Source: Vicugna vicugna
Taxonomy: Eukaryota
NCBI GenBank assembly: GCA_013265495.1
Contig: MU057454.1
Location: forward strand, 1 to 51,728
Direction of reading: 5' to 3'
DNA length: 51,728 bases
Shown piece after piece: positions 15,553 to 51,490 of the stretch. The translations under genes were made by a program, and so were the position numbers. The notes under the pieces are model-generated. The model was not told where the DNA came from, made no database searches, and was given only the letters and a program-made list of their open reading frames with translations. Position 1 is the stretch's first letter. Each line of letters begins with the position of its first letter.

Positions 15553-15571
15553 NNNNNNNNNNNNNNNNNNN
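15553..15571. other. Assembly gap within a poly-T
   Basis: Run of N. Confidence 1.
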
Positions 15572-29618: not shown

Positions 29619-30108
29619 TGTTACTGAGTCCAAATTCATTCTCCTCAGTGCAGGACTGGCCAGTAAGTTGGGAGACCAGGTGTTGGGGCATGGAATAGCA
29701 AGTTTCTGTAGACCAAGATGGCAAACTAATGTCCTGGAAAACCATCTCCCCAAGTCACAATTCAGGCTCCTTTTCTATGTGCTTGGTTTTTGCAAACTTC
29801 TTGGTGTAGGAATTCCTTCTTGTTAGAATCCTTTGTTCTTGCAGCTATCTGCCTGGGTCAGATCCCTGTAAACCTCCAACAAAACAAACGTTATTTTCTA
29901 TTCTGCAACTAGTTATCTTTATATGAATGGAAAAGTGTTAAATACCCTTAAAGGTCAGAGCCTTCAGAATAGGCTCTCCTGCATATTTTAGGCTCTAGGC
30001 AACATTGTTTTACAAGCAAGATGAAGCCTAGGAGACATAGCACAGGGTTAAATTCAAAGGAACAGATCTAATATGGAGTCAGATTTGTTCTGTTCTATTA
30101 CCGGGGCA
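29619..30108 (-). mobile_element. ERV1 solo LTR (MER34/MER4-group-like) with 4-bp TSD
   Basis: TG...CA termini, with GAAG on both sides (29615-29618 and 30109-30112). The 3' end reads ttggactcagtaaca. It is homologous to the LTR at 30749-31272. Confidence 0.85.
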
Positions 30109-30748
30109 GAAGCCACTTGAGGGTTTAAATCCCTTTAAGTTAAAGATAAGCAAAACTTTAAAGGAATTTACATACATTGGTGGGAATGTGCATAGCATAT
30201 CTGGAAAAGCACACAAATGTTTGTAAACAGTGGCATCTCCAGGGAGGCGTGTAAGAACAGAGGATGAGGAAAAAGTCCTTTCACTTGTGTATTTTGTGCT
30301 CTCTTTGAAATTTTTTAACCATATGCATATATTTCTTTTTCAGTTAAAATAAAAGTGTAATGGAGCAAACGAGTAACTAGCTCAGCAAATACAGCAGCCA
30401 TGGAATCACTGAGTCATCATTTTTGATTTAAGCCAGGAAGCATTGATTGCCTCTCTCCTATGTGCCCAATGCTGTTTTAAGACTTCTTTCATATTTTTTT
30501 ATAATATAATAACATGTTAACACTCACCCCTGCCCAGGGCTGGTGGAAAACCAACTGAGTTTTTATTGAGTTGTTTTCCAAGGAGTAGAGATGAGTTATA
30601 AACAGAACACATCTTCAGGGCAATAGAGGCGGAGTGCTTTTCCAGCAGGCCAGATAGCAATGACCGGTTTTCAATAGAGGCGCACAGAGGCTGAGAGAGA
30701 AAGTCTCCAGGACCCTACAGAAAGCTGCCCAAAGTGCCTTCTCCATGG

Positions 30749-31272
30749 CACTACTGAAATAGGAAAGAACAAATCTGACTCCATATTAGATCTGTTCCTT
30801 TGAATTTAACCCTGTGCCCTTTTTCCTAGGCTTAGTCTTGTTGTTTCTGCACCTTTTGTGAAACAGTGTTGCCTAGAGCGTGAAATGTACAGGAGACCTT
30901 ATTCTCACGGCTCTGACTTTGAAGGATATTAACACTTTTCCATTCGTATAAAGATAACAAGATACAGAATAGAAAATAACATTTGTTTGTTGGAGGTTTA
31001 CACGGATCTGACCCAGGTGAAGAGCTGCAAGAACAAAGGATTCTAACAACAAAGAATTCATACACCAAGTTTGCAACAACCAAGAATTCCTGCTTCCCGT
31101 TTTTAATATAAGAGCCTGAATTCTGACTTGGGGTGATGGTTCTCCAGGACATTGGTCTACCATCTTCTCAGCTGGCTTTCCAAATTAAAGTCGCTATTTC
31201 TTGCCCCAAAACCTGGTCTCCTGATGTGTTGGCCTGTAATGCACGAACAGAACAAGCCTGGACTCGGAAACA
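30749..31272 (+). mobile_element. ERV1 solo LTR (MER34/MER4-group-like)
   Basis: aaatctgactccatattagatctgttcctttgaatttaaccctgtgc...attaaagtcgctatttcttgcccc...ggactcggaaaca. Same family as 29619-30108, in the opposite orientation. Confidence 0.85.
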
Positions 31273-32276
31273 CAAACAGACATTGAAAGTACCCATTTGG
31301 TATATTAAATGACCTGCTTGCACTCGTCTTCCTGACGTTTTCTTTTCTTGACCACTCCTGGTATGTTTATGAAAAACCTGTCATGTGGACACATTTCCAT
31401 CTCTAGTCACTACCCTTCCAGGTAAGAACTGATGCCAATAATGCAATGGAAGTTGCTAGAAGATATTACCTGGCCAAAAAATTGCAGAATTGGTTTCTGG
31501 CTGATGTTCAGGAGCAGGCTGTGACACCTGACAAGATGTCATAAGTATGGATAGACAGCTGGGCACCAAAGGAGAAGCTTCTAAACTTCCATGAGGGACT
31601 TGTTGGATAGGAAGGAAAAGTCCCAGACTATAGCTCTGATCCCACCACGAGCTTCCTGGGTGAGGCTGGGCAAGTCATTTAAATTCTCTAGGCCCGTGCT
31701 GTCCAACATGGGAGCCACCAGCCACATGCAGGATTATGATGTTATTCTGTAGCCAGACAGAATTATAAATAAACATTTTATTGCAAAGGGTCAGCAGGTA
31801 TAATAGTTAAAAACATTATTGGTTATCTTGCCCTAACAAGTTATTTTTGTATGTCTAGCTTTCTGTGGTTTGCAATGCCTGCGACTAATGATTCCCTTAC
31901 AGTGAGATATTTTGAAATTATAAGTTACTGGACACAGTGCCCACATATCACACTTGAAAAAAATTGATCCACATAAGCAAGGTGATCTGACTTACTAGTT
32001 ATGAGCAGGGGCTCTGGGGCCAGACTGCCTGAGTATAAATTCTCACTCTGCCTCCAGGGGGTTCTGTGTGAATCTTGGAAAAATTGTTGTTGTTATTGTT
32101 GTTGTTGTTGTTGTTATTTGTGCCTCTTTTTCCTTCCCTTTTAAATAGCGAGGAATATGTAGACTCTATCTCGTACCGTGTTGCCAGGATTAAATGAGTA
32201 AACGTCTGTGCTGCCCACTTCCCTGGGTTTCAGCATTCTCCAGGCAATCAGTGCCAAACTCAGAGGCATTCTCCAC

Positions 32277-32628
32277 TGTCTTCGTCAGTCTGGGATGCTG
32301 TAACAAATTACCGTGGGTCGGGTGGCTTAAACAACCAGCATGTTCCTTAAGTTTTGGAGGCTGAGGTCAATGTATCTTGGAGAGGATAGCCTTCATGGCT
32401 CGAAGATGGCTGTCTTCCCACAATCTTCGTGGGCCTGAGAGCAGAAAGAAGCAAGCACTCCGGGGCCCTGTATAAGAACACTAATCCCATTCATGAGGGC
32501 TCCACTCTCATGAATTCATTTTATCCTACTAATCACCTCCCAAAGGCCCCGCCTCACAATACCATCACCCTGGGAGATGGGGTTTCGACATATGGATTTT
32601 GAGGAGATGCAAACATTCAGTCCACACA
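32277..32628 (-). mobile_element. MaLR LTR (MLT1A-like)
   Basis: tgctgtaacaaattac...ggtggcttaaacaac...cactaatcccattcatgagggctccactctcatga...cacctcccaaaggcccc...aaacattcagtcca. Confidence 0.88.
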
Positions 32629-32946
32629 TCGGCTAACTCTCCCCAACATGCAGTCATCAAACATGTAGCTAATTTCAAAGTAATGTTTGTATCTCTCTGC
32701 CCATTTCTATTCCTACATCCACCAACACCGAAGCCCTGTTACATTTTATTCCTTATTTTTCTGGTAGAGATTTATTTGATTCCTCTAACTCCAATGCTTC
32801 CCTCGCTCCAGTCTGCTTCACAGCCATGCCAGGTAGGTCTTCCTTAAAACACCATCCCACTTCACCTGGTTGTTTTTTAGGTGTAAATGTCAGAATCCTC
32901 TCCACACCCCATCCTAGACCTTTAATCCCTTACACTGCGGCTCACT

Positions 32947-33710
32947 ATGTTATTTTCCCATTACCACTGTTACAAATTTCCATAAGCTTAATAGCTTAAA
33001 CCAGCACAGATTTATCAGCTTACGGCTGTGTAGGTCAGAGATCCAACACAGTTCTCATTGGGCTAAATTCAAGGTACAAGCACGATTCCTTCCTTCTAGA
33101 GGGTCTAGAAGATAATGTTTCCTTTTTTTTTTTTCCAGTTTCCAGAGGTCACCCACCTTCCTTAGCTTGTGCCACTCAACTTTCTCCATTTTCATGGTCA
33201 ACAGCCTTTCTGAACATTGCTCCATGGCTACACCTCCCTCTGACTTTAAACTCAGCTGGGAAATATCCTCCATTTTATGGACCCCTGTGATTACATTGGG
33301 CCCACCTGGACAATCCAGGCTACTCACCCTATTGTCTCATCTCAGGATCCCCTTGTCCCATCCCACTCAGGAATTATGTATGTGGCTGTGACACTCACCT
33401 TGTGTAACATTTCCTCTCATGAGCAATTCATAGTTCAAGGCACTTATAAGTGACTTTTTGTTTTTCTTCCTTATCCTTTCTACATTCAGTATGTCTGGTG
33501 AGATTATATGAATCATTTTTATTTGTGCCCCTGCTCTAATCTTTAATAATGTATCATGGGATTAAAAGGCTAACTAATAGACAATTTAGGGGACAGAAAT
33601 CCTCTAAGATATTTGTCCTAAAATATCTGTCATCCCTTTTGCCATGTACAGTAACATGTCACAGGTGGCTACCCTGTGGCCAGGGAGGGACATGATTCTG
33701 CAACCACAGT
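32947..33710 (-). mobile_element. MaLR LTR (MLT1D-like), split by a ~290-bp insert
   Basis: ttacaaatt...agcttaaaccagcacagatttat...tgtgattacattgggcccacctggacaatccagg, which resumes at atctgtcatcccttttgccatgtacagtaacat. Confidence 0.75.
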
Positions 33711-34813
33711 CCCCTCATTCTCACCAATATGCTGATCACCTAACCAAGGATCTATGCTCCCCGCTTCGCTCACTTCCTCCTCCTTCCCATTGACTATCCT
33801 GTTCCCACTATTTCCTTCATTCACCCCATCAGGATTTCATGACCACATTCTTCTCTAAATGAAATGGGTATCCTGCATTTAATGTCTGACAGCAGTTCTT
33901 AATGTATATGCACACACTGACCTACACATAACCCCGTCCATCTCTTTATTTTCCTAGAATCTTCCAGAGGAATCAGTTCCATGATGATGATGATGATGAT
34001 ACTGACAATGATGACAGGGGCCTCTCAAGGATTCTGATAAAGAGGGAATCAATAAAGGGAGGGAATCACTGCAAAATTGCCCCAGAAACAGGCTTAAAGG
34101 TAAATAACTGCTAAAGTGTTTAATGAAATTGACTAATATTTAACTATTTTTAAAACTTTATATCACTGAATTTAAAATTTTAATGAGAATTTTCATTCAC
34201 CACTAACCAAGGTTCAACTCTAGGACCAAAATCTAAGGATTTCTGCCTTCTAACAAATTGTCCACTAGCGTTTTAAACACGTGATCCTTTTAAAAAGCTT
34301 TGGGCTGGGCTGAAAATAAGAAGGATTCATATAATCTCATCAGACACAGTGAATGTGGAAAGACTAAGGAAGAAAAAAAAAAGCCATTCATAACGTCTTG
34401 AACTTTATGTTGCTCACAGGAGAAAATGTTAGCCAAGGTGAGTGTCACATCAACATGAGGCCTGAGTGGGATGGGGAAGCTGATCTGCCTCATCAGACAT
34501 TTATGCTGATTTGTAAGATGCCAACACAGTTTCCTCATTGGATTTGCTTCTAACAAGTATGGAAGAATTTATGTTCTACAAAAAGCAGGCTAAATATTTT
34601 CCCCTGCTGTCAGGTCTCTGAACTGAATGTCCCCACAAGAAGGATATGATTATGTTTCATAGGGAAGTCTTACTGAGAAGCAACAGGTTTTTCTAGGGCA
34701 GAACTGCAGGGCCCCCCGTGGAGGGCTGGAGGAGGGCTAGAGGGGACACTGGAAAAACAGCAGGAGTGAGTTTAGATACTGCTACTCAGGTCGCCAAAGA
34801 CAGCATTGCTTCC

Positions 34814-35710
34814 TCTAATGATATGACATTCTCCCAAAAGTTCCATGAGTGAAGAAGCCTGTGAACACTAAGCAGGTTGTTAAGACACAGCAGCACATAA
34901 TTTGCGTGACAACACAATTAGAGTATGATTTGATATTTGGAAAATAATTAGCCCATTGTTCTTTGAAACTGCAGCAGTAGCAATAGAAATAAAAAAGACT
35001 GAGCCATCTTGGGGACAACAAGCAATAAACAATTCTGAATCTGCAGGATTCCTTGACAATTTGCAAGCAATGAGCTAGATGTGTGCTGCAGATACCTCTT
35101 ACTGCAGGGCTCACTCCTGCAAAGTATAGAACTAGTTTCTCAGCAGACAGGGGGAACCAAGTCAAGATTCCTAATCTTGAGAGGTTTACTATATGGCAGG
35201 AAAGATCAGACAAGTACATACAGCCAAATATGAATAAATGTAATCAAATATTATCAAATGTATCTAATGATATGACATTCTCCCAAAAGTTCCATGAGTG
35301 AAGAAGCCTGTGAACACTAAGCAGGTTGTTAAGACACAGCAGCACATAATTTGCGTGACAACACAATTAGAGTATGATTTGATATTTGGAAAATAATTAG
35401 CCCATTGTTCTTTGAAACTGCAGCAGTAGCAATAGAAATAAAAAAGACTGAGCCATCTTGGGGACAACAAGCAATAAACAATTCTGAATCTGCAGGATTC
35501 CTTGACAATTTGCAAGCAATGAGCTAGATGTGTGCTGCAGATACCTCTTACTGCAGGGCTCACTCCTGCAAAGTATAGAACTAGTTTCTCAGCAGACAGG
35601 GGGAACCAAGTCAAGATTCCTAATCTTGAGAGGTTTACTCTATGGCAGGAAAGATCAGACAAGTACATACAGCCAAATATGAATAAATGTAATCAAATAT
35701 TATCAAATGT
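34814..35710. repeat. Near-perfect tandem duplication, 2 x 449 bp
   Basis: 34814-35262 and 35263-35710 match, with one internal mismatch seen (a at 35191 vs c at 35640). Confidence 0.95.
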
Positions 35711-35829
35711 GATTGGAGCACAGATAAAAGGTAAATTCCTTTCACCTGGGATCTAGAGAGACTTCTTTAGAAAATGTGGCTTTGGAGATGGCCAAAGACA
35801 TGGGTGGAATTTTGGCAGAACAAGATGTA

Positions 35830-37422
35830 AGGAATTTAAAAACTGATCCTAAATTAATATAAAAATTCAAAGGATCCAAATATCCAAAACAATTTTGAAC
35901 AAGAAAAACAAAGTTGAAAGACTTGCACTATCTGATTTTCAGACTTTTTTACATAAAGCTACAGTAATCAGAATGTATGTTGTTGGTGTAAAACAGGAAA
36001 ATAGAATAATGGAACAGAATAGAATGTTCAGAACTAAACAAACACCTATATAGACAATTGATTCTCAAAAAGGATGCAGTGAAGAAAAGAAACTTTTCAA
36101 CAAGTATTGCTGGAACAATTAGACAGTGATACGCACAAAAAAAAAAAACCAAAAAAACATGAACTTTGATCCACACCTCACAAAATATACAAAATTTAAC
36201 TCAAAATGGATCATCGATCTTAATAGGAAATCTAAAACTATAAAACAGCTAGGAGAAAAAGCATATGCTTAAGCTTTATGACCTTGGGTTTGGCAAATAT
36301 TTCTTATTGGCAAATATTGCTATGACACCAAAAGTATAATCTATTTTAAAAAGAAACTGATACAGTGGACTTTATCAAAATGAAGACTCTTCAAAGCTCT
36401 TCTAAACACTGCTAATCAAATGAAAAGATAAGCCATAGACAGAAGTTATTTGCAGATCAAATATCTGATAAATGTCTCTCTTTGTATCTGATCCAGAATA
36501 AAGAGGTCTCAAAATTCAATAATAATGCAAACACCTGAATGAAAGAATGAGGCCAGGAAACACAATTCAGTAAAGATATCCAGATGGATAATAAGCATAT
36601 GAAAAAATGCTGATTAAAGATGCCATTAATCATTAGAGAAATGCCTTTAAAAACCACAGTGAGATCCTAGTTCACATACATACAAGAATGAATACGATTA
36701 GAAAGACTGAATTTACAAAGTGCTGGCAAGGAAGTAGAGCAACCAGAACTGATACACACCACGAGGAATTTACAATAGTACAACCATTTAGGAAAAGTCT
36801 TTAACAGTATCTTTAAAAAAGGTAAATACCTATCTACCATATAACCCAGACATTCCTCATCTGGTGTTTTAGAAAAGAAAAGCATATGCCCATACAAAGA
36901 CTTGTAACCAAACATTCACTGCAATTTTATTTATAATAGCTCAAGTTGTAAATAACCCATGCATCCATCAAGAAGTAAATGGAGAAACAAATGATGGTCT
37001 ATACAAACACAGCTCACAATAAACTATTCAGTAAAAACTCAGCACTAAACAATACTCTGCTATAAGACAAATAAGCTATTACTACAACAACACAGATGAC
37101 TCTCAAAATAATTACACTGAATGAAAGAAGTCAGACAACACAGAGTAGATACTGCATGAATCTATTCATACAAGGATCTTGAAAATGCAAACCAATATGT
37201 TGTGATAGAAAGCAGATCAATGGTTTCCAGGGGAAGAGATGGGGAGGGAGGGAGGGAAAACAAAAGGCAGAAGAGAAGCTTTGTGGGTGATGGGTATGTT
37301 CACTGTCTTGAGTGTGGTCATGGTTTTTGGGGATATACTTATGTCAAAATGTATTAAGCTGTACACTTTAAACGTGTGAAAATTATTTTGCCAAGTATAC
37401 CCCAAAGCTGTTTTAAGAAAAA
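35830..37422 (+). mobile_element. L1M ORF2 C-terminus and 3'UTR
   Basis: caaaacaattttgaacaagaaaaacaaagttg...aaagctacagtaatcaga...aactcaaaatggatca...aaaaccacagtgagat...tgaaagaagtcagac...gctgtacactttaaa. Confidence 0.92.
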
Positions 37423-38109
37423 AGGCACTTCAGGCCTGATTCACCTCAGCGCCTGATGTAGTGACATGATCAGTCCCCCACCCTGTCTGCCTAACGGGAA
37501 GGTAGAAAACCTCTCACGGAAGGTAACATATGGATTTTTCATTTTCAATGTCTGCCATGTAATAAAGAATTTCTAGACATGCAACATGTCAAGACTATAT
37601 GACGGATAATATGAGAATAAGAAACATTAGACAAAGGATGTAAACCTCCAGGTGATGTAGGCATCAGGGTTACCAATAAAGGCTATAAAATACTTTTAAT
37701 ATATTCAAGAATATAAGGAAATGATGGGAGAATAGATAACAGGGTAAAGACTTTCACCAGAGAAATATACTGGAATGTATTTTTAAGAAAAATCTAACAG
37801 ATACTCTAGAACTGAAGCTTTCAGATCTGGAAACAGGTAAACAGAGTTAATTAAGATCCCTTTTAAGTAAAACTTTCAGTAATGCCGGATAAAATACAAC
37901 AACAAAAGTAACACAGAGCTAACTATGGAGAGAGAAGTTCCCAGGTGACAATACAAAGGGGACACTTAAAGCCCAGAGTGGTAATCTTGTGAGCTGATGC
38001 CTCCGCACCCTGGAGGCAAGGGGTTTTAATCTGCACATAAATAGGGATACAATGTCCACTTAGGAAAAAGGGTCCATACCAGATGTAGAAGACTCCTCCT
38101 TTATATCTA

Positions 38110-38388
38110 TATAGTCAGAGACAGAGATGTAAAGTGGCAGCAGAGGTCACAGTGACACAGGGCCCTGGGCCAAGGAGTGTGAGCACCTCTGCAAGCTGGG
38201 AAAGATAGGAAGATGAATCCCTCCCTAGAGCCTCGGTGTGGAACATAGCCTTGGCCACACGTTGGTTTTAGCCCACTGACATCGAATTTGCAATTCTGCA
38301 CCCTAGAAAGTGAGACTATGAATGTGTATTGCTTTAAGCCACTGAGTCTGTGGTCCTTTGTTACAACAGCAATAGGAAAGGAACTCAG
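38110..38388 (+). mobile_element. MaLR LTR (MLT1-like) 3' part
   Basis: gccaaggagtgtgagcacctct...gaatcctccctagagcctc...tgtgtattgctttaagccactgagtctgtggtcctttgttacaacagcaataggaaa. Confidence 0.85.
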
Positions 38389-40197
38389 GAACCAACATGA
38401 ACATGAACCACAGGCTGCCTGCTGTGCTGGCATGAAGTCCTTTGTCTCTGATCCTGGGGGAGTGTCCTGTCTTCTGGCAGCATCCACAAACTACCTCATG
38501 CTAACTTGGCAGCTTGCAGAGGGTTAAATCTTATCCCTGCACAGTTCTTGATATTTAGTTAATAAAAATGATGGTGTCATCATGGGTATTTTTCCATCTT
38601 TTAAATACACTTCAGTCTTCTAATCGAGAGACCGTGTAAATAGTTTTCAATCTTCATAATAAATAACTGATTTTATCTGGTTACTTAAATTATGAATAAT
38701 AATATTCACATTTGCAAAAGTTATTAAAATCAACATTGTTTAATGAAAATATCATTTCTTTTCGCACGAACATATATTAACTACAAGAAATGTTCCATGC
38801 TTTGTTCTACGATTTACTGTTAGAGCCTTAAAGAATAATATTTTCCTCAAAAGATATTACGGCGAAGGGATTTCTTTTGGTGGAACAGTTCCGGCATCAA
38901 ATCTGGTGCATGGCTCAGGCCACTGGGAACATAGAGATGATAGAAATTAGGAGGCATTATAAACACAGAATCACTTTTAAAGGAATTAAAAAAACTGGAT
39001 GTGTGAAAACAAAGAATCACAGAATATTCTGGTGAAATAAATGTATTTTTCAGCTTAAGCAAGACACAGGGTGAATAAATCTAAAATGAAAAAAACCACC
39101 CACAGATTAACAGCGAGTCATGCATGCAGTGTGAATGATCAAAACCAAGTTGTTTCCAAATCAGTGTGCAGGCTTGATGCCTTCATGAATCAAATCTGTG
39201 TGGCAACAGGCCACCTCGAATACATGTTGATGAGGTATACATAAGCCCTTCACCATCCCAAATCAAAGCCCACACACGAGCCACAAGACCATCACCTACA
39301 CATTTGCAAAACACACAGCATGGTGAATAGCACTTTTCTTGTTCAGTAGCCGGTGGCAGGGAACTGTGAGCAGACAGAGATACAGGGACACAGAGGCACC
39401 TCCCCTCACTCAGCTGATAAACTTCCGTGCATTCCTGGGGACAGGATTGTCATAAAATGCACCATGGATTGATCCTCCTCCTCAGAAAGGAACAGTAGGG
39501 CTGTCCTCAGGTTTGAGCAAGGGTGGCCGGAGGATCTCAGAAGAGCTGTTTCAGCACAACCAATAGAATTGTCGGCCACTGTGACCACGAGAGACAAGTC
39601 TCCTGCCATCCAGGTAGGCACTTGGGCTCCTGACAAAAGCTGGGCTCAGTAAAGGGTTGAGTAGAAGGCACACACCTGAGGGATGCCCCAGCAAGAGACA
39701 GGAGGTAGGGCCTGGTTTATACTGCTCTGGGTGTATCCCAGCCTCATCCGAATACAAAATCAGAAATTTGCAAAACAGCAGAGCTGGGATGGATCATCTA
39801 CTCCAGACTCCTCACCTTACAGTTAAAAGGGTGGCAGCTCTGACAGGCAAAGCAACGTGCTAAAGGCAGAGCATGGAAGTGGCAGCGCCATATGAAACGC
39901 ACCGTGCCAACCCCCGTTCAAGGGAGCTGACACTGAGGACGAGGCCAAGGTTTCCAACGAGGAGAATGAGACAATGTAAATACTGTGTTCCCCCCAAAAC
40001 CCCAAATGTTTTTTAAAGGCAGAAAAATTCACCTTAACTAGCTCTCTTCTGAGGGGGCTCTCTTCTGTCTCCGTCTTTCTGTCTGTCTCCATTTCTCTCT
40101 CTCAGATACAAACACATACAATTTTGTGAAAGGTTACTTCCTGCCATACAAAGACAGAATTCACATCTTCAGAAAGACACTTGACAAATCACGTTTC

Positions 40198-40587
40198 TCA
40201 ATTCAATTCTTTGTGTGAGGTCTGGGCAACTGGCTTATTTTCTAGAACAATCGGTGTTTCCAAAATCAGGAGACCATCTCTTCCAAAGGAAGGGTTCTGG
40301 TCCGTGTTGATGAAGTTGGGGATGTCACATTTCATGAGCCTGTTCGGCTCCTCCTCTGGCCACCGGCTGCATCTGAAGGTTTCCTTGAGCCGAATATCAC
40401 TGTCAAGGGCAATGGTTGAGATACCAGCTTTGGCCTTGTCCAAGTGATCCACTTCATTCACGTAGCAGTGAAAGAGGGACTTAGATTCGTCATTGCCCTG
40501 CCAGAGAACACCTTGGGCACCAGCAATCTTCCAAAGTCTGACACAAATCTGTTCAGTCTGAATCTGTTCTCGGGAGACTCTGCATTG
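40198..40587 (-). pseudogene. MRAP2: MRAP2-like terminal coding exon with 1-nt frameshift (diverged paralog or pseudogene)
   Basis: The acceptor is ttttattttggttttctttatag| at 40588. In phase 2 the exon reads NAESPENRFRLNRFVSDFGRLLVPKVFS. After a 1-nt deletion near 40502 it reads QGNDESKSLFHCYVNEVDHLDKAKA...LMKCDIPNFINTDQNPSFGRDGLLILETPIVLENKPVAQTSHKELN* (TGA 40198-40200). This matches the recalled MRAP2 last exon (NAESSEKRFRMNSFVSDFGRP...LMKFDIPNFVNTDQN...QTSHKDLD). I did not find the upstream transmembrane exon in the window. Confidence 0.92.
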
Positions 40588-40821
40588 CTATAAAGAAAAC
40601 CAAAATAAAATATCGCTCACACTCTAGCTCGGTGACCTGAAGAATCATAGTTTTTGCCATCTACTGAGTGCAAGTCCCTGCACAGAGCATGCTGACAAGC
40701 ACTGGAAGTGAGAGACATCACTTCTGAACACATACAAATAAACCCAAGGCAAAAGTGAGGGCCCCTGGACCATCCTGAAAAGACATCACTCCCTGAGAAC
40801 CAATATTGGTGCCTCGCACAC

Positions 40822-40995
40822 CAGTGTTTCTCAGTGGGACACTCAGATCATCTTCATAAGAATTAGTTTAAGCGCTTCTTAAAATGCAGAATTCTGGGGT
40901 GCACACCCTCAAGGTCTCCAGAGGTAGGGACCGGTAGTCTGCATTTTCATAGCCACCAAGATCACTAAACACGCTCAGATTTAGCACCGCGGTCT
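40822..40995. mobile_element. MER5-like hAT MITE
   Basis: cagtgtttctca...cttaaaatgcagaattctgggg...tctgcatttt. Confidence 0.7.
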
Positions 40996-42389
40996 ACATC
41001 GGGTCACCTGAGCATCGACAATGCTGTCTCACGGGGTTGGGGTGTTGCCATGTGTGTCAGGGTGCTGTCCAACCCACGTGTCTCCTCTGATTCTCAGAAC
41101 TGACAGTGCAGCCCCATTGGGCAAGAAATACCACCATTTCACAATACATATGCAGGGCGCCCAACTGACAGATACAATCAGTGATAGGAGAGGGGACAAA
41201 ACTCAGCTTCTTGATACCTTGTTTCACTTACTGTGGGACAAATGATCAACTCAAGTGTAATAAAGCAGTGAATGAGTGAATAACATGACTCTCGTTAGTC
41301 CCACGAGTGCCTGGAAGAGCGAGCCTGGGCACACTGAGAACCATAACAGCCCATCTAATTTATTGCCATCCTCCCCAGATCTCTGTAAAGTTTATTTCCA
41401 CCCAGGCAGTGAATCCTGAAGGGCAAGAATCATGTCTGAACACAGTCTAAAATTCAGAACAGAACCTGACAACAATTAGGCTCTGGAGTCTGTGTAAAGC
41501 GAGTGTGGAATCTCAGTGATTCCAGCTGTTACATCTTGCCTTCCCATCCCACCCTTCACGATATGGCCCTTATGATCAGTTCTCCCGGGGCTGGGGCCAC
41601 GGAATGCATTTACAGGATTGGAAGAATCTGATCATGTAAACCATCCCACAGATTATAATCAAGAGTCACCTGCATTTCAGGGATCAGTAATCCCAGAAGC
41701 TTTGCAGTTCAGGCAGCTGAGGGAGTTTTATATCAGCTCTGTCTTCTACTGTGACTGCCTGGGTGACATCAGACAAGGAATTCTCAAAAGCCTGAGCTTT
41801 TCCTTTCAGAGAGCTTTTCCGGAATAATCTAATTAACGAATCTCATTGACCACTCAACAAATGTGATGTGAAGATCAATGATTTACACAGGAGTACAACA
41901 TTCACTAAGTAGTGGATTTAGAATCAGAGAAAAATCATATGAGAAAGATTGACAGAATGTAGCTTTAATGCGAATTTAAGTTTTCTTAACTTTCAGTAAA
42001 TCATCTTCCCCTACTTATCACTTCACCCAAGTTTAAAAGATGTTTGAGAACAGAGATGAGTGTGCCAGGAATCTGTGACCCAATAAATGTCACCTAGGAA
42101 AAAGAGGGGAGTAACACATTTTTAAAAAGCATAGTGAGGATGGCGGGGCCATCCCCCAACTCCAGACTAAGAAGCTCTGAGTAATAGCTTTCCTACCTGC
42201 CTGGGGCATCAGCTGATGTGAAAACCCACCCAGAAACCTCACTGTCCAGCAGGTCTTCCATAACACAGGCTACAATTTCTCAGAATTAACAATTGCGTCC
42301 AGTAACCACTTCGCTGAAGAATAAACACAAAGGAGAACAAGAGAGTTCTGCCCCTCCCAAGGGGAGAGCCCAGACTTTGGGCTGCATGC

Positions 42390-44320
42390 ACTGCGCCCAC
42401 CTCTCAGGAGAAGAATAAACTGGAGAAGGGCGTTCTGCAAAACTGGGGCAGCAAAGGTTGAGATGGGAACAAATTGACCAGCTGTCCTGGGATAGCCCCC
42501 TTTGTCACTGCCTTGGCAGCTGCCTCTGCCGCCTCAGCACATCCTGCCCACCTCCAGTGGCTAAGCTGTCAGGGAAACTGTGCTTTGCGACCTGGGGCAA
42601 CAGAGGCTGCCCCAGGCCAAGCTGCGGGGGAGATGGGAGCTAAACCACCAGCTCCCAAGCAGCAGGGTCCATACCCCCGCCAACACCCCGCTGCCCCCGC
42701 AACCTACCGCACCCCCGGGGCAATATGACCCGGAGAAGGGTGACCTGGGAACGAGGGGCAGCAGAGGCCGCCCCCACGTCAGGCCTCCAGAGAGATGGGA
42801 GCTTATCCTCCAGCTCGCCAGGGGCAGCCCCCTTCTCCTATCTACCCCCTGATGTCACCGCGCCCACCTCCCAGGAGCAACCTGACCTGGTGTGGGGTGT
42901 CAGGCGAATCTTGGGCGGGAGGGGCCGTCCCCAGGCCAGGTCAGGGGAGAAGAGAAGAAGTGGCCCCATTAGGAGGGGCAGCCAGACGTCGCAGCTGCCT
43001 CTGCCCCTCGACCGCATCGCGCCCGCCTCCCAGGAGCAAGCTGATCTGGAGACGGCCATCCGGCTTCTTTGGCAGCAGAGGACTCCCCCAGGATTGGCCC
43101 TGGGGAAGATTGGAGCAAATTGACAGGCTCCGCACTGCAGGTCCTCTACCCCCGCGGTCGCCACCCCCGCACTTTAAAGGCACCGCCCAGGGCGCCCCTC
43201 CCTCAGCAGGCTGAATGGGACAGGTGTGTCTGGCGATCTGGGGCAGGAGAGGCCACTCCCACACCAGGCCATCGGGGAGACGGGAGCCAATCCACCAGCT
43301 CCCCAAGGCAGCACCCTACCCCCCGCAGCAGCCACCACTCTTGCCGATGACCACACAGTGGCCTCCTCTAGGGAGCAGGCTGACCTGGAGATGGACGTCC
43401 GGCGAACTTGGGACAACAGGGACCGACCCCAGGGCAAACCATGGGGGGAAATGGGAGCAAATGGACCCGCTCAATGGGAAAACCTGCCGCTGCTGCCACC
43501 ACCCCCAACGTACCACGCCCGCCTCCCGAGCCACCCCTCCACCCTGACTACCCTGCCTCCCGCCCCCAGCAGACAAAGTGGGACAGGGGTGTCCCGGGAC
43601 CTGGCGCAGCAGAGGCCGCCTGCAGGCCACACAGCACAGACAAGGGAGCTAATCCACAAGCTCTCCCGGGGCCGCCTCCCTATCCCAGCAGCCACCACCT
43701 TACCAGCCCCCTGACCGCACCACACCCATCTCCAAGGAGCAAGCTCACCTGGAGTCAGACCTCAGGCAAATCTCCAGCGGCAGAGGGGCGCCCCCAGGCC
43801 AGGCCGCGGGGGAGAGAAGAAATGGAGCAGCTCCCTGGAACGGACCCCCTCCCCCTGCCGCCGCTGCCCCCGCCTCCCAGGAGCAAGGTCACCTGGAGAC
43901 CAGCGTCCCGCCTCTAGGGCAGCAGAGGCCACTCCCAGGCTCCGCCGCGGGGGAGAGCGGGGAGAATTGACCGGCTTCCCCGAGGCAGCCACCCTATCCC
44001 TGTGGGCCCCGCACCTTAACGACACCGCCTCCACTCCGCACTCAGCAAGCTGAATGGGACAGGCGTGTCCGGCCACCTGGGGCAGCACAGGCCACTCCCA
44101 GGCCAGGCAGCCGGGACAAGGCAGCTATTCCACCAGTTCCTCAGGGGCAGCCCCGCTCCGCCCCCCTGCCACTGCCGCCGCCCACTGACCTAACCTCCCC
44201 ACCTCCCAGGAGCAAGCTTACCTGGAGTCCAACATCTAGCGAATCTCTGGCGGCCAAGGCCCCCCCAGGCCAGGCTGCAGGGAAGAGAAGAAATCGACCG
44301 GCTTGCGGGCAGCCTCCCAC

Positions 44321-44352
<32 letters not shown>

Positions 44353-44400
44353 CCAAACCATTCCACCAGCCTCCCAGGGTCAGGCTGACTGCGAGGATGT
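42390..44400. repeat. GC-rich diverged tandem array, about 13 units of ~164 bp, CpG-island-like
   Basis: The anchor cctcccaggagcaagctgacctggag (or the variant cagcaagctgaatgggacagg) recurs at about 42400, 42551, 42712, 42867, 43026, 43197, 43365, 43560, 43729, 43873, 44035, 44202 and 44370. Each anchor is followed by ggcagcagaggccgcccccaggccagg, gggagcNaatt/ccaccagctc and a C-rich spacer. Confidence 0.9.
44321..44352 (+). repeat. (CCG)n trinucleotide tract
   Basis: ccgccgccaccaccgccgccgccgccgccgcc. Confidence 0.9.
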
Positions 44401-44618
44401 GCACCTGCCTTCTGATCCTACCCAAGTGCCTGAGCACCTCCCTGCACCCCTACACTCCCTGCACCTCTACACCCCTGCCACTCTCTGCACTTCTGCACTG
44501 CCTGCACTTCTGCACCCCTGCACCCCGCATCCCCTGAACTACCTGCTCCCTCCACAGCCCCTGCACCCCTGTCACCAGTTACACTTTTGCACTGCCTACA
44601 CTTCTGCACCCCTGCATG
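44399..44618 (+). repeat. Degenerate 8-bp minisatellite (ctgcaccc)n
   Basis: Repeated ctgcaccc, ctgcactt and ctacactc units directly after the 164-bp array. Confidence 0.85.
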
Positions 44619-47600
44619 TCCCACAAACCACTTCTTGGGCCTGTGGCAGAGTCTCTGCTGTTAGACCAATGCCCAGGAACTCACATCTTTGCCAGTATAT
44701 GATGCATCAGTGGACGTCTGGGGTTGGCTGCAGGAAGGTACATGTTCCCGGTCACTAGCCTGGGCCGCTAGAGTGATCTCTGTGAGGTCACCGAGGACGG
44801 GCTCAGAGATGATGTTTTCCGGGAAGAGAGGAGTTGAAACCGGTCTTGAGGGTAGAGCTGTGCTCACCAGGCCATCCACGCTTCATGTTTTACACAAGGC
44901 TTCGGAGAATTGAAATGGATCCAGCCAAGTAAGACCAGCCTGCTGTGCGCCCACCTCAGTCCTGGGCTCTGAGGCAGACCGACTGGCTCCCACCGTCAGG
45001 ACCCAGTTTGGGCACCTGAATGGTCCCTTGTAGGCATCCTATCACTTCTCAGGAAGAAGTCTGGCTGCTTCCACCCCATGGTCCTCCCTCCCACTGTGCT
45101 GGCCTCAAGAAGATTCCTTATTTGGGGAAGAAGACAGCCCACCCCCTACCCCACCCCTCACCTTTCTCTATCCCAGGCTGGTGCTTTCTCTGCCCATCAG
45201 AGTCTGGAAAGCCATTCCTCTTCAGTTTTGTCCCTTCTGAGATGGACTTGCTTCCACTCAATTCTAGGCGAGGATGCACCATGGAATGCACTGGGTAAGA
45301 GAACCAAAATAAATAGTTTCTTCTGTGAGGTTTTCTGTTTATCTACTGGGGCTGGGCTGTGTGTAGTTTGCTACAGCTATTCATGCGAGAGGCTAAAGCC
45401 GCCTGTGTGTCCTTGTTTTCATCTCCCCGCTACCTTTGGGTTTTCTCTAGACACTCCTGAGACATTTATTTCTTTTAATTTTATTCCTGTTATTACACAG
45501 AGGCCCTACTGTCATGGAGGCAAGGTGTTGGGAGAGCGGGACAGAGCAGGGCATCTGCAGTCCTGTGAGTAGTTCTCATTGAGCCTGTGCCCTGAGCTGT
45601 GACCTCCACAAGTGTGTCTCTTTCCCCCCACCCCAATTTGGGTGACATAGAAGGGATTTCCCTTCTCCCAGGTTGTTTAGGCTCTGGTAAAATAATTTCT
45701 CATTAAAAAAAAACAAACAAATAACAACTTCCCCCCAATGAAACAGAATGTTCTGGGTGTATTTCAATAGAGCTATTTTCTCCTTTCCAGGCAGGAAGCA
45801 TGAGGAGTTTTTCTCTGACCTTCATTCTGAGAACAGGACACGGTCCTGGATTTAAAATGCATGAAAAAGAGCATGGGGCCCCTTTGACTGGCCCCCTGTA
45901 GTTGTCACACTCAGACTTCCCCAAGCTGAGCCTCCTGCTGGCCTCATGGACCTGTTAAATCTCCCTGCCCCCGGGGTTCTTACAAAAGCGGGTTCTGCCC
46001 TGGGAACTGTGACTCTCCAAGCCTGCTCAGCTGCCTCTCTGGTTTGGGAGCAGCTTTTCCCCTCAGTTTTCTGGGATCTAAGAAGAGCAGTGGGTTTGCA
46101 GCTCCCTCAGTTCTGGTGTTGTTTTCAGGACAGAAGGAGCAATTTCTCAGCTCCACACGAGCTGGACCAGAGGCTGAAATCCTCCCTTCCTCTGCCTCCG
46201 TGCAATCAGTGGCTGTGGTTCTAGCTGAGTTTCTAAAGATGCGGATTTAGAAACACACATCCCAGCCCCTTAAGGAGCATACAGTCCCATAAATCACCCC
46301 AGTTTCCACTGGTAATTACGGAGCCGATGAGGACACGGGTTTCGGGACCACAGAGGCCTGACTGCACGACTTGCTCCGTGGCATTAACGTGGTTGCTCTG
46401 GGCCTTGTCTGAAGTGGCTTGCTTACCGCACCTGGTATGTGGGAAACACAAAATAAGTACTAGAACCTTCACTTTTTCTCCCTCCAGGGCCTTCAAACAT
46501 AGGAAGTAATAAGAGAACTCAGATGGCCTAGTCACCACAATGAGGTCCGACCAGCCTGGCTCTCCTGAGTGATGGGCACTGACTTGCACCTTAACTCGGA
46601 ATAGTAGGGGACCCGCCTTCCTCTAACTGGGCATCTCCGCACAGCGGGCACGCCCTCGGCTGAGACGGGGCCAGCTCCCCCTTTGAGGTGTGTGCTAGTG
46701 GCTTCAGTGTGACCTGGCCCTGCCGGGACGTGAACCTGCAGTGAGAGAGGTGGAGGGTCGGATGGAGGGGGGTCCCTTCTGGGGTGGCAGGGGGCCCGGT
46801 AGCACCCAGCCCGTCCTGGTGCCTGGGGCTCCCTAACACCTCCTACAGCTCCTGGGTTGGCTCCGGTACTGGCCACTCCACACACCCTCCCAGTATCTTT
46901 TCATTAAGCCCCTTTTTCGCTTTTATCAGCGAGAAGTGGCTTCTGTTGCTTGTTCAGTGAAATAGTGCATCGGGAAACCAGACTATTTCTAACATCAGTA
47001 AAATACTAACCTCGGTCAGCTCGCCGGGCAGACCGCGCAGCACAGAGGCCTGCACAGGGCTGTGCGAACGGCTTATGTGAAGGGCCCTCATCATCTGTCT
47101 TCAGAGATACAGAAGCTGGTGGTTCAGGTAAAACCTCAGGGAGGGATTGAGGAACCCAAAGCTGGTTGGTTTCAAAGGCTAACTGGTCAGACCAGACCCC
47201 TGAGCTGTGGTCAGAAGCCTAGCTCAACATCCCGCAGACTCAGCGCCCTAAGTGCCGGGTGGGGCCGGTGCTGTTCCCTTTGCAGGCTCTCGTTGGGGAT
47301 TCACTGTAGCCCCTTAAATGCAGCAGAGATTCCAGCCCCAAAAACCTGAGTGTTCATGACACAAATCCCGGGAGTGTTTAATTTGCATCTTTGTTTAGGA
47401 GGATGAAGGAGGGGCAAGAGGAGACATAAATTCATACTGACTGACACATGGTCAGTCAGTACGTCCTCCACGGAGAGCTATGTGCTCCCACAGTGGTGGC
47501 TGGGGGCTGAACAGAGACCCTCTGCTGGTCCCAGAGGTACTCGCTCCTCTGGCCACAACTGATGGGTTGGACAACAGATCCAGAGGGAGGCAGAGCATCT

Positions 47601-49019
47601 TTCCTTGGAATTTGGAACTGACATACAGAAATCATGTTCACTCATCTGGGGATGGCGGAGGGGAGGGGCGGTGTTTGGAAATCAAATGAAACCAGAGCAT
47701 GAGAGAAAGTTAGAAGTGAAAGAGCGAGAGACACAGAGACTGAGCTTGTGAGAGCAAATAGTCAGAAAGAAGGCAAACAATCAGGGGACAGAGGAATTCC
47801 AGCTCCTGACTGTCTAGTCTGTCCCAGCCCATCAATGACCCCGCGGGATGCTTAATAACATTCCAGTTTTGCAGATTAGGAAACAGGCTACAGGCTGAAA
47901 GGGGGCTGGATTTGGGTGCACAGTTAATTCAAGTGCCACTGGACCCCTCACTTCCCATTGCCTGAAGGCACCCTAATCCACACTGGGACTCCTGCGGTCC
48001 CCTGACAGTCCAGCACCCTGATCAAAGGGCCCCTGCGGGAGTGGGAACCCCTCTGAGTGTGGACAGTTCCCTGCTCCGAGATGCCATGCATCAGCAGGCT
48101 CCCGCTCACCACAGGTTAACATCACCCCAGCTGTGCAGTCTCCCGACCCGCTTCCCTTCCTGCCAGGCACCCCCGTCCTTCCCACCGAGTGTACTGCAGG
48201 GATTTAGGCACAGGGATGCCCAAATCAACACGAGCCCACCGGCTGTACAAACAGCAGACTCCCAGCCCCACCTGGGTTCCGAGGGGACAGTAGGCGTCCT
48301 TAACTTTCATGTGTCTAAGACAATTTTCTTCTTCAGCTGGAGGTTATAGAGAAAAATAAAAGGTCCAAAACATAGTTCGGTGAGGAATTCCTCCATGGAC
48401 CTGACTCCAGAAACTACAACCAGGTGTACCTAACCCCCAGACTTGGGGTGAAGGTGGATTATTGATCAGCACAACCCCTGGTGGCCCAGCTCCTCGGCTT
48501 GGCTGCCCAGAGGGGGCTGGGGGAATGGGTAAGGCCAGGGCACTCAGGAAAAGCACAGAGGATCTGACCTCTCCCCTCTGCACTCGTAAACCCTTCCCCA
48601 AATCTCAAGGAATCGGACAGAGAGCCGCCACAACAATAAGGAGATGCTCCCATCTCTTCACTCAGTCCTGTCGGTTCACTTACATGCTGAGCATCCACTG
48701 GGTCCCAGGACATGACACATAGGATGGCTGATGGGACAGGCTTGGTCCTTCCCCCTGGAACCTGTTCAATCTGATCAAAGAATGATCACTCATAAAGAGT
48801 TTCTCAAAATTATACAGAGACCAAAGACCAACTGCAGAGTGAACCAAATTTAAAAATATATATGAAGATCCCCCAGTCTCCCCGCCTAAGGTTAACAGCA
48901 TAAAGCAAAAAATTCTTGCCTTTAATCACCAGGGAAGTTGTCACCCCCTCTCAGGTGGAAAGGAGAGTTATTCTTTGAGCACGTCACAGAAGTGCTCCAT
49001 CGGATTGGACCAGGGCATC

Positions 49020-51490
49020 TACATTCATTCAGCAAATGTGTATAAGCTCCTACTACATACGGGAATCTCCTAACTAGACCGTTCCCAAGGCTCTCGGGCT
49101 TTATCAGTCAACAAAATAGACATGACTCCCCATCACTGGGGGCTCAGAATTTTAGCAGAGGAAACAGGCAGCATGTTGGGGGTAGCAAGAGTTTGGAAAA
49201 ATTTTAAAAAAAGAGTGATATGAGCAAACTCGGGTGATGGCCGTGGGGTGGGAGGCAGGCAGGAGGGTATAAGGCAATCCTGGCAGATCTCATGGAGTAA
49301 TGAACTTGAAGCAGAATAGATCCGGAGGAAGAAGGAAGAGCCAGAGCCTGAGGCCCCCAGAGTGAGGGGGAGAGTGTGGGCGGAGAGGCAGAGCACTCCG
49401 GGCGGGTCCTGAGCCTTCGTGACGGACTTTGGCTCCTAATGAAATGGTGACACTTTTAGTGAGTTTTGAGGGGAGGGGTGATGTAGTCCAACTTATGCTT
49501 TTGTGTTTGTGTTTTTTGGGGGGAGGTAATTTATTTATTTTAATGAAGGTGCTGGTGATTGAACCCAGGATCTCATGCATGCTAAGCATGTGCCCTACCA
49601 CTGAGCTACACCCACCAACCCCAATATATGTTTTTACAGGCTCCCTCTGACTCTGTGTGGATGAGAGATTGTAGGAAAGCAAAGATGGAAACAGGAGGCT
49701 ATTGGTGTCCAGGAAGGGCTGAAGGTGGCTCTTAGGAGGGCGGGGAGCAGAGAGCAGGTATTTAATGAAGACAGAGTATCCAGAATTTTCTAACAAGCTG
49801 GATTTGCTGTCTGTGAACGTAAGAGAAAGAGAGAGAAAGGACATGATTCCAACATCTGGACCTGGAAATGGGAGGGATGTCCTCTCCATCCACAGGGGAT
49901 GGGACAAGGTGGGGCTGAGCAGGTGGAAAGGGGATGGTATCAGCTCAGTTCTTCAATGTCATGGTTAAGGGGTGTATTACATATTGCCACAGAAGTGCCT
50001 AATAGGCAGAGGAATCTGTTTTCTTTTTCTTTTTAACATTTAAAAATATAATTTAATTGTATTAATTGTATTAAGTGAATGATTTGGGAATTTCGTTTCA
50101 TGCCAAGGTATATGTTATATACAGCCAAATGGAAAATATATCAAAAAAGGGGAGAAATGAGGGCTTTCACATAAACTGACTGTCCGTAACGTAGGTAAAA
50201 TTTCAATAAAACCAGTCTTCAGTGCAAAAACCTCATCTCGGTGTTACATAAAAATAAATGATAAATGACTATGTTGATGTATCATTATTTCATTTTACAT
50301 AATAGCCCCAAACTAACACAGTGTTTAACTATGAGGCTTGTAGAAATACTATTCGCTTTATTCACATAAATACAGAATTGCATAAATGTTCTAAGGTAGA
50401 ATTAGCATCTTAGTGGAAATAATACATATTTGAGCATTTTACATGATATATATGTACTGATTCAAAATTTGGAAAAGTAATTACATAGTAGAACATATGT
50501 ATGAATGTGAAAGCAAGATGAATGAAAGGAAAAGAATGTGAGTCTCAGGGATAAAGGTCCAGATGGAAAGGGGAAATCAGGGAATTTTGGAGAAATCGAG
50601 AAATTGATGGCATGCCAATTTCCAAGGCTGGGTTGCTTCCACCAAAGGAATAGCAGAGAGAGAGAGGAGAGGCCCAGGAACTGACCCTGGGGCACACCCA
50701 CAGTATATTTTGGAAAAAAGAGGAGACATTGGCAAGGGACCAGCCAGCAGGACAAAAGCAGAAACAGACAGAGCGATGGGCTGGAGGTTGAGTGAAACAG
50801 GAACATGGGGTAGGAGGGATGGAAGAGCTGGGTCAAATGCTACCAAGGGACCACGCATGATGAGGAGTCAAAATTGACCACTATATTTAGCAACATGGGG
50901 TCACTGATGGCCTTGACAGGGCAGTTTCCATAGAGCGAGGGATCAGGCGAAAAGCCAGAATGGGTGTAAAAGGGGATGGCTCAAGAGAAGATGCAGACAG
51001 TGAGTTTAAACAACTCCTTAAAGATTTGCTGCAAAGACACAGGGTGGCAATTGGTGGGGGTGAATTAGGGTCAAGGAGTGCTGTTGGTTTAAGAGGATGG
51101 ACGTTTATATACTGATGGTGCCAACTAGCAGGAGAACAAAATAGATGAGGCAGTGAAAGAGAGGATGGTTTTGGGAGTGACAACCCAGAGAAGATGGGAG
51201 GGATGGGGCCCCAGGGACTTTTGGAGGAACTGGCTTTCAATGCCACTTTTAATAAGCGGTGGGGCACCGAGAGTGAGGTCACAGACATCAGAAAGCGAGC
51301 GGATGTGCTAGGAGTTGCTTGTGAAATTTCTCTTCTGTTGGCTTGTTTGCTTGTTCAAAGTAGAAAAGTAACCTTACCAGCTGAGGAACAAGGAGGAAGA
51401 AAGAGTTGCTGGAGCCATGAGCAGAAGATAAGAAAGAGCCTTCCAGGGAGAATGGGACAGTAAAAATGGCAGGTGGAGGCGGGTGAGTGA
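49020..51490 (-). mobile_element. L2 LINE, interrupted by a SINE and a ~510-bp AT-rich insert
   Basis: Begins with the cattcattcagcaaatg tail, followed by a purine-rich L2-like body (gatttagcaacatggggtcactgatggccttgacagggcagtttc). Confidence 0.8.
49499..49620 (-). mobile_element. Camelid-type tRNA-derived SINE with TSD
   Basis: ggggaggtaatttatttattttaatgaaggtgctggtgattgaacccaggatctcatgcatgctaagcatgtgccctaccactgagctacaccc, flanked by ccaacttatgctttt and ccaatatatgttttt. Confidence 0.9.

Follow-up and report, generated by a model that had tools for sequence, protein, structure and literature searches.

An MRAP2-derived exon of Vicugna vicugna, a probable passenger pseudo-exon in an old camelid segmental-duplication family

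Segmental duplications are defined by a length of at least 1 kb and an identity of about 90% or more. They are known to amplify gene fragments, which are sometimes exonised into chimeric transcripts. The 'core duplicon' families of primates are mosaics of unrelated gene fragments present in dozens of copies, with new exon–intron structures and transcription in reproductive tissues, and several of them show positive selection or conserved ORFs. For the alpaca, pseudogene-rich repetitive blocks have been reported on chromosomes 11, 17 and 36, containing NEK10-like, ATF5, FMN2-like, uS3m-like, ACTB and ABHD17A-like copies, while MRAP2 and TRAPPC9 have no occurrence each in the main text of that report (PMC13751797, 2026). 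Table 2 of a further paper counts 0, 7 and 4 MRAP2-like models and 0, 4 and 8 TRAPPC9-like models in the annotations of the domestic Bactrian, Arabian and wild Bactrian camel, respectively, and the paper treats both families as melanin-related, with copy-number differences (PMC10568864, 2023). MRAP2 is also mentioned in a selection scan, by gene name only (PMC13564503). In the literature searched, the amplicon described below appears nowhere past the gene-count table of PMC10568864, and no analysis of the MRAP2-like and TRAPPC9-like sequences as one co-amplified, neutrally evolving block devoid of the transmembrane exon was found.

The stretch of DNA analysed here, referred to as the window, comprises 51,728 nucleotides (positions 1 to 51,728 of contig MU057454.1, assembly GCA_013265495.1, V. 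vicugna). A homologue of the last exon of MRAP2 is located at 40198–40587 on its minus strand. With good confidence, this exon is regarded as a passenger pseudo-exon that belongs to an old segmental-duplication family of camelids and is spliced into transcripts that are probably non-coding; a working receptor-accessory protein encoded by it is very unlikely. Like the primate core duplicons, the camelid family is an amplified mosaic with new exon–intron structures and transcription in reproductive tissue but, unlike several of them, it has an omega of about 1 and no conserved ORF. It also resembles the alpaca blocks as given in the main text of PMC13751797, being made of multicopy, fragmented gene pieces in large repeated domains that are read as duplication followed by decay; those blocks are reported to be absent or reduced in camel assemblies, whereas MRAP2-like and TRAPPC9-like models occur in both Camelus and Vicugna. 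The families tabulated in PMC10568864 are the same two as in the window block, but their treatment there does not extend to co-amplification in one block, absence of the transmembrane exon or neutral evolution.

A six-frame search of the whole genome with the profile PF15183 (Pfam MRAP) gave three matches, on contigs C8256 and C6350, and none on contig C193. The match at C8256:13984678–13984788 is the transmembrane exon of MRAP2, and the two exons on C6350 are taken to be MRAP itself. The last MRAP2 exon lies 10.3 kb downstream of the transmembrane exon on C8256, in frame and 96.9% identical to MRAP2 of C. ferus. The intact true MRAP2, whose position the preliminary description of the locus had left to be found, is on contig C8256, away from the window. 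Homology between this parent locus (L012) and the window is confined to 38111–42375, at 82% identity, and a short added match of 164 nt at 37937–38099; given the latter, homology to the MRAP2 locus may continue downstream past 38111. Hence, the copied piece amounts to about 4.3 kb from the MRAP2 3' end. Parental homology ends 1.8 kb upstream of the exon and the transmembrane exon of the parent falls outside the copied piece, so that no match to MRAP2 residues 1–83 was obtained in the window by tblastn with the full-length sequence P0011, whose matches start at residue 84. The profile search likewise revealed no transmembrane exon in the amplified copies, and the window copy thus lacks the N-terminal region and single transmembrane helix of the MRAP family. 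A search beyond the window for the upstream transmembrane and N-terminal exons had been suggested; PF15183 matches occur in the genome only on C8256 and C6350.

The acceptor AG of the exon is intact (tttctttatag/CAATGC, within the minus-strand context tttctttatag/CAATGCAGAGTC...) and 40587 is the first exon base. Read in the MRAP2 phase, from 40586, the exon translates to NAESPENRFRLNRFVSDFGRLLVPKVFSGRAMTNLSPSFTAT followed by a stop; the shifted frame, which starts at 40587, runs for 129 codons before its stop, and the third frame has many stops. In tblastn searches with the MRAP2 sequences P0010 (Camelus ferus) and P0011 (Kogia breviceps), the homology was divided between two frames, with residues ...NAESSEKR...DKVFS of true MRAP2 matching window 40586–40503 in one frame and QGNEES... 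to the MRAP2 C-terminus matching 40500–40201 in the next. Identity over the last 100 aa was 74% with P0010 and 72% with P0011, and the 29 aa preceding them are recognisable in the neighbouring frame. Alignment with the MRAP2 exon of the genome itself located a 1-nt deletion at about 40503/40504 and an extra 3-nt (GAC) deletion at about 40515, the latter absent from the preliminary description. Instead of the continuous frame that runs through the C-terminal tail exon in the MRAP family, homology is split by the 1-nt deletion. The open frame of 129 codons is unremarkable, because the old MRAP2 frame supplies 101 of them and the 28 shifted codons in front of these contain no stop in the parent MRAP2 either. 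The coordinates of all features are listed in Table 1.

Much of the preliminary description of this exon holds. Its coordinates and intact acceptor were correct, the 1-nt deletion near 40502 and the resulting TGA were borne out by translation and alignment, the exon is stop-free throughout in phase 0, as stated, and the estimated identity of about two-thirds to the MRAP2 C-terminus was essentially right in view of the tblastn values above. The TRAPPC9 copy noticed downstream was also recovered. In addition to the exon itself, the adjoining intron and 3'UTR are homologous to MRAP2 at 82%. Unlike MRAP2, however, the window copy has no N-terminal or transmembrane exon, has lost one codon and carries a 1-nt frameshift, and the amplified fragment exists in dozens of neutrally drifting copies, has other genomic neighbours and possesses new splice sites that make the exon internal.

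Table 1. Features of the window, with positions (position 1 is the first base of the window), strand and basis.
Feature	Position	Strand	Basis
Window, within multicopy duplicated block	1..51728	.	All thirds matched elsewhere (89–95%); C4412 collinear
TRAPPC9 5' coding-exon copy, frameshifted	22953..23738	-	Co-amplified with MRAP2 fragment
Exon D, 3' exon of the transcript recorded by L018; acceptor AG 39482–39481	37679..39480	-	Ends at start of retrocopy A-tail
Segment derived from MRAP2 locus: last coding exon, ~1.8 kb of preceding intron, 3'UTR/flank	38111..42375	-	82% to L012
Exon as used in family transcripts, 555 nt; donor AAG/GTGAAT, intron from 40032; start at 40581 with alternative acceptor	40033..40587	-	RNA joint 39932–40033, retrocopies
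MRAP2-derived coding part of exon: shifted frame of 129 codons plus stop TGA 40200–40198	40198..40587	-	Acceptor AG 40589–40588 intact
Premature TGA in MRAP2 phase, result of frameshift	40458..40460	-	Translation
Site of 1-nt deletion: TTCTC-TGGCAG here, TTTTCTCGGCAG in parent	40502..40505	-	Alignment
Site of 3-nt deletion (GAC, Asp codon) relative to parent MRAP2	40514..40516	-	Alignment
Exon B, exonised from former MRAP2 intron	41990..42093	-	Retrocopy L018, RNA contigs
Exon A of the transcript recorded by L018, in GC-rich region not derived from MRAP2	43893..44118	-	Retrocopy L018
Exon E3; acceptor from GT-AG intron 44684–44275 in RNA, donor CAG/GTAAGC inferred from database gene models	44222..44274	-	
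Exon E2, with ATG 44743 of alpaca model P0002; acceptor lost here (GGAA)	44685..44816	-	
Exon E1, joined to E2 in RNA contigs	45162..45290	-	

The assembly to which the window belongs (2.03 Gb, 12,405 contigs) was searched in six frames with the 129-aa frame as query. At least 45 matches were obtained, about 30 of them spanning residues 1–129 in a single frame with 75–88% amino acid identity; these counts are lower bounds, and 34 of the 45 matches were aligned. Twenty copies were taken with 10 kb around the exon and 13 further ones as the exon plus 200 bp, the survey of splice sites covering 18 copies and that of ORFs 15. Eighteen of the 20 copies with 10-kb flanks align to the window over 8–10 kb, far past the exon, at about 88–92% nucleotide identity. 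When the three thirds of the window were used in DNA searches, each matched other contigs at 89–95%. Collinearity with contig C4412 extends over more than 40 kb, starting at base 1 of the window and reaching beyond the exon; therefore, the entire window lies inside a duplicated block of more than 50 kb. Such long DNA-level paralogy, including non-coding flanks, is that of segmental duplications, some pairs being slightly below 90%, and the window copy retains intron and flank homology to the parent, as a processed pseudogene does not. Kimura two-parameter (K2P) distances over 4.2 kb were 0.033–0.055 from copy to consensus and 0.054–0.097 between copies, with no pair closer than 0.054, and 0.142 from the family consensus to the parent. 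These distances point to a single old burst, with a founding duplication still older. Annotated family members exist for Vicugna pacos as well as for Camelus, in keeping with a camelid-stem origin. A search for 1:1 orthologues between database camelid models and the 34 copies gave best identities of just 84–91%. A location in a sex-chromosome amplicon was considered and dropped, database relatives being placed on several long contigs of 23–114 Mb. In a sequencing-run index, the shares for the stretch were small, 0.22 or less.

The age of the frameshift was examined in an alignment of the window with 34 sequences, namely the parent, 31 DNA-level copies and two retrocopies. The 1-nt deletion was present in 31 of the 33 aligned family copies, counting the truncated L018 (L019 does not cover the site). 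The two basal and most divergent copies, L020 and L021, have the deleted nucleotide but carry TGA where the parent has CGG (Arg). The GAC codon is absent in all 33 family copies covering it, basal ones included, and RNA contigs from independent data sets that cross 40477–40596 show no indel relative to the window. The deletion is therefore ancestral and not a sequencing error, the alternative that the preliminary description had weighed, and the copy was in consequence dead as an MRAP2 reading frame before amplification.

The best database matches of the ORFs at 22953–23738 were camelid 'TRAPPC9-like' models, with 71–80% identity, while genuine TRAPPC9 of many vertebrates gave 60–69%. This TRAPPC9-like exon has 123 matches in the genome and, in 23 contigs including those of the two basal copies, it is found on the same strand as the MRAP2-like exon, 13–20 kb downstream of it. 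Joining of the two fragments therefore preceded their amplification, and for this reason CEP162, the usual neighbour of MRAP2, is not adjacent. TRAPPC9-like copies repeat at a spacing of about 60–65 kb on several contigs and outnumber the MRAP2-like ones, so the MRAP2 piece is present in just some of the units. TRAPPC9-like copies with apparent open frames of 450–1162 aa were considered as full-length retrogenes; for the one examined, on C6718, this was rejected, as its open frame of 1162 aa is due to a run of N. A Pfam scan of the 213 stop-to-stop ORFs of at least 70 aa in the window detected nothing credible; the single match, a weak one to CLN3, fell far below the cut-off and involved a Lys/Glu stretch of low complexity.

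Four RNA data sets, one of them consisting of raw single-cell reads, were mapped on window 37500–45500. Minus-strand GT-AG introns were detected at 45161–44817, 44684–44275 and 40032–39933, and RNA contigs link the 5' end of the exon (40587, or the alternative acceptor 40581) to an upstream exon ending at 41990. Loose contig ends occur at 40581 and 41990, and also at 45291–45293, where they indicate more exons upstream of E1. The raw single-cell reads were oriented as expected of minus-strand RNA. Over the 5' part of the exon, all reads and contigs are 95–99% alike, with differences from the window at 40511, 40525, 40526 and 40530, and are therefore evidence for the family and not for the window copy. 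Family transcripts are abundant in some RNA runs. Two intron-less retrocopies were identified. L018 joins window-equivalent segments 44118–43893, 42093–41990, 40581–40033 and 39480–37679, and has a flanking AAAAATCT target-site duplication, ATTAAA and a short A tail; L019 joins 40501–40031 to 38930–38718. From the GT-AG joints, the joint of exon B with the exon in RNA contigs (95–99%) and the two retrocopies, some copies are spliced into multi-exon, polyadenylated and germline-expressed transcripts in which the exon is internal.

The splice sites used by these transcripts are in part new. In the window and each of the 18 DNA-level family copies checked, the donor at 40033/40032 begins with GT (AAG/GTGAGT; GTGAAT in the window). 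The corresponding sequence in the 3'UTR of the parent is CTGAGT, and the GT donor is therefore an innovation of the family; the acceptor at 39482–39481 is likewise new relative to the parent. The donor of exon B is GT in 12 of the 18 DNA-level copies and TT in the window copy, where it is therefore probably unusable.

The transcripts might act as RNA, as germline lncRNAs or as decoys for microRNAs or RNA-binding proteins that target MRAP2, in which case the coding frame would be irrelevant. They share about 2 kb of sequence derived from the MRAP2 3'UTR, exon D itself coming from MRAP2 3' sequence; the post-duplication splice sites are well kept, as seen for the 40033/40032 and exon B donors; and transcripts were obtained in several RNA runs from different studies, with germline expression attested by the two retrocopies. 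A role of this kind is nevertheless considered unlikely, since an ancestral GT retained over about 4% divergence requires no selection, the window copy is devoid of two family splice sites, and an identity of about 82% between this 3'UTR and that of the parent is poor for shared microRNA sites.

Selection was estimated from 30 full-length copies of the major clade, with 261 unique substitutions relative to the consensus and an expectation conditioned on base change and CpG context. The values come from unique events and not from a tree, and the copies were pooled, so that constraint on a small subset would be hidden in them: omega was about 1.17 for the shifted frame over the whole exon and 1.14 for its MRAP2-derived part alone, compared with 0.96 and 1.02 in control frames 1 and 2. 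The purifying selection on coding sequence expected of an MRAP-family member is not seen. Stop-creating substitutions numbered 9 against 14.6 expected, a mild depletion that is in the direction of constraint but not significant. The acceptor AG is kept in the parent and in 17 of the 31 family copies covering the site and is lost in the other 14, 10 of which have the same TG. The shifted frame is open in 13 of the 30 major-clade copies and broken in 17, and only five of the 30 combine AG with an open frame (the window, L013, L017, L024 and L035). Each copy has about 16.5 substitutions over the 390 nt, at which level, by our own estimate, roughly 40–50% of the copies would be expected to remain open by chance. 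The substitution pattern shows neutral drift of the exon within the family since amplification.

Coding potential was assessed by applying the splice patterns seen in RNA and retrocopies to the sequence of the window copy. From the ATG of E2, translation crosses E3, enters the exon in its third frame and ends after 48 aa; an ATG in E3 starts a peptide of 47 aa in the MRAP2 phase; the E1-E2-E3-B-C model has an ORF of 60 aa that ends inside exon B; and no ORF begins in A or B of the A-B-exon-D isoform. The longest ATG-initiated run of the MRAP2-like frame in the window copy is 45 aa, from an internal Met. None of the modelled isoforms of the window copy contains an ORF with MRAP2-like sequence longer than 48 aa, nor an in-frame start that reaches the 129-codon frame, and the two alternative products announced in the preliminary description are thus unsupported. 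The MRAP2-phase product had been predicted to escape nonsense-mediated decay (NMD) because the exon was thought to be terminal. This terminal position was not confirmed, family transcripts ending the exon at the 40033/40032 donor. The stops of the shifted frame and of the MRAP2 phase lie 165 nt and 425 nt, respectively, upstream of the exon junction and, under the rule of about 50 nt for NMD, the argument for escape is undercut; it fails for the isoforms observed. As to the choice offered between a paralog or pseudogene and a truncated MRAP2-like accessory protein of metabolic interest, the pseudogene stands, whereas a single second paralog is contradicted by the at least 45 matches in a duplicated block, and the accessory protein by the missing transmembrane and N-terminal exons. 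A plain dead fragment with no transcript, also envisaged, does not agree with the family transcripts present in RNA-seq contigs. Database models of the family carry four different and incompatible 5' ends, the typical product of gene prediction on pseudogenic sequence, and the family transcripts look non-coding.

Some members, possibly including the window copy, could still be protein-coding chimeric genes. Their product would be a soluble protein of about 165 aa, composed of a short new N-terminus from E2/E3, 28 shifted residues and, at its C-terminal end, 101 residues that complete the MRAP2 tail, which could titrate partners of the MRAP2 C-terminus. The alpaca model P0002 (166 aa) and the longer model P0008 do read the exon in the shifted frame from an upstream ATG, residues 1–19 of P0002 match window 44743–44687 at 19 of 19 positions, copies L017 and L027 have P0002-like ORFs of 166 and 164 aa from the same E2 ATG, the E2–E3 intron was confirmed in RNA, and the slight depletion of stop-creating changes goes in the same direction. 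However, these are only two of the 15 copies tested: E3 varies from 52 to 57 nt across copies, and the E2 ATG is therefore linked to the shifted frame in just 2/15 testable copies, while in L017 the E3 donor region is aligned as gap only. In the window copy, the E2 ATG leads into the third frame, as described above. No joint of E3 with the exon is listed in the four RNA runs; the joint seen is that of exon B, with an in-frame stop four codons upstream by our reading of L018. Moreover, omega, at about 1.2, is no different from control frames, the acceptor has been lost in 14 of 31 copies, and the protein would be without the transmembrane anchor, the defining element of MRAP-family action at receptors. 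Protein-coding chimeric genes are accordingly judged quite improbable.

An equally doubtful proposal is that the block is the camelid counterpart of a core duplicon, that is, an old germline-transcribed mosaic of GC-rich promoter and exons, MRAP2 3' and TRAPPC9 5' fragments, whose amplification would have been driven by its own transcription unit and in which a minority of copies might encode either the soluble protein of about 165 aa with the MRAP2 tail or a regulatory RNA, acting on MRAP2-dependent receptor signalling in reproductive or neuroendocrine tissue. Finally, the window exon can hardly be the true syntenic MRAP2 ortholog with a sequencing or assembly error as frameshift, a reading already refuted: clear MRAP2 homology of the exon and nothing more speaks for it, against an intact MRAP2 with transmembrane exon and in-frame last exon on C8256, the deletion in 31/33 family copies and in RNA contigs from other data sets, and 14–18% divergence from the parent over 4.2 kb.

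For the passenger pseudo-exon, the preferred reading, the following history is proposed. At an early stage of camelid evolution, a DNA-level copy of about 4.3 kb from the MRAP2 3' end would have come to lie beside unrelated sequence. The copied piece would have comprised the last coding exon together with some of the intron before it and the 3'UTR, with no transmembrane or N-terminal exons, and would have acquired as new neighbours a GC-rich block on its upstream side and, on the downstream side, a TRAPPC9 5' fragment. The order of changes was probably the loss of one codon, then the change of the Arg codon and then the 1-nt deletion. The mosaic would then have been amplified within a block of more than 50 kb, giving dozens of copies that are dispersed or clustered. 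New splice sites in the former intron and 3'UTR allow some copies to be spliced into multi-exon RNAs. The window copy has probably retained its acceptor and open shifted frame by chance, and both the E2 acceptor and the exon B donor of the family are lost in it. With these two sites lost and no start for the 129-codon frame, the window copy therefore most likely makes no MRAP2-like protein; if transcribed at all, it would give a non-coding or NMD-prone RNA.

These data carry a warning for camelid genomics. The 'MRAP2-like' and 'TRAPPC9-like' models of camelids are indicated to be co-amplified, neutrally decaying fragments without the transmembrane exon; such models should not be taken for extra melanocortin-pathway genes, nor enlisted in arguments on camelid energy metabolism or pigmentation. 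The family offers a natural example of exon capture, of splice-site birth in a former 3'UTR and intron, and of retrocopying of chimeric RNA. It is also a further large and old duplicated block in camelid genomes, whose duplications have been little studied.

The family of MRAP2-like exon copies was aligned with the intact parental MRAP2 gene of the same genome, and the alignment showed that point changes within the former MRAP2 3'UTR gave rise to new donor and acceptor sites for splicing, one of each. The 5' exons of the family transcripts, the minus-strand spliced RNAs that carry the MRAP2-like exon internally, come from a GC-rich stretch with degenerate internal repeats, in which cross-matches by copies between 42.6-43.4 kb and 43.5-44.35 kb reached 65-75%. 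Spliced family transcripts were also the source of two processed retrocopies, L018 and L019, the former bearing a AAAAATCT target-site duplication, ATTAAA and a short A tail. Coordinates are detailed in the table.

Features of the window and related loci of the same genome (G000)
Feature	Position	Strand	Remarks
TRAPPC9 5' coding exon copy, frameshifted	22953-23738	-	six-frame genome search and database protein matches
GC-rich block	28000-29600		GC 0.58
Direct duplication, two units	34818-35243 and 35267-35692	-	offset 449 bp
New splice acceptor	39480-39483		AG in family, GG in parent
New splice donor	40030-40035		GT in family, CT in parent
GC-rich stretch, degenerate internal repeats	42400-44600		GC 0.62
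CCG run	44321-44352
Short tandem array	44438-44576		43-nt unit
L018, processed retrocopy	C1708, 4440-7146
L019, processed retrocopy	C4026, 4436-5118
L020, basal family copy	C7120
L021, basal family copy	C3009

The basal copies L020 and L021 were without the 1-nt deletion, their former Arg codon being TGA, and the TRAPPC9-like exon was already present in them 18-19.5 kb downstream. The six-frame search yielded 123 matches to this exon across the genome, as a lower bound, and camelid "TRAPPC9-like" models ranked best among its database matches. Approximately 5 kb upstream of it, in the minus-strand sense, lies a GC-rich block in which both strands carry long Pro/Gly/Ala-rich ORFs that overlap; this block could have been copied from a CpG-island promoter or a first exon.

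Each unit of the direct duplication gives one 142-aa ORF, both ORFs being near-identical, and both units were also matched by copies elsewhere in the genome. Runs of N at about 13500-13640 and 19530-20140 are assembly gaps, which show up as stretches of X in the listed ORFs.

Towards the upstream ends of the family transcripts, RNA contigs stopped at 45291-45293, with at least three differing upstream continuations, which suggests that the exons further upstream are alternatives or that the transcripts stem from different copies.
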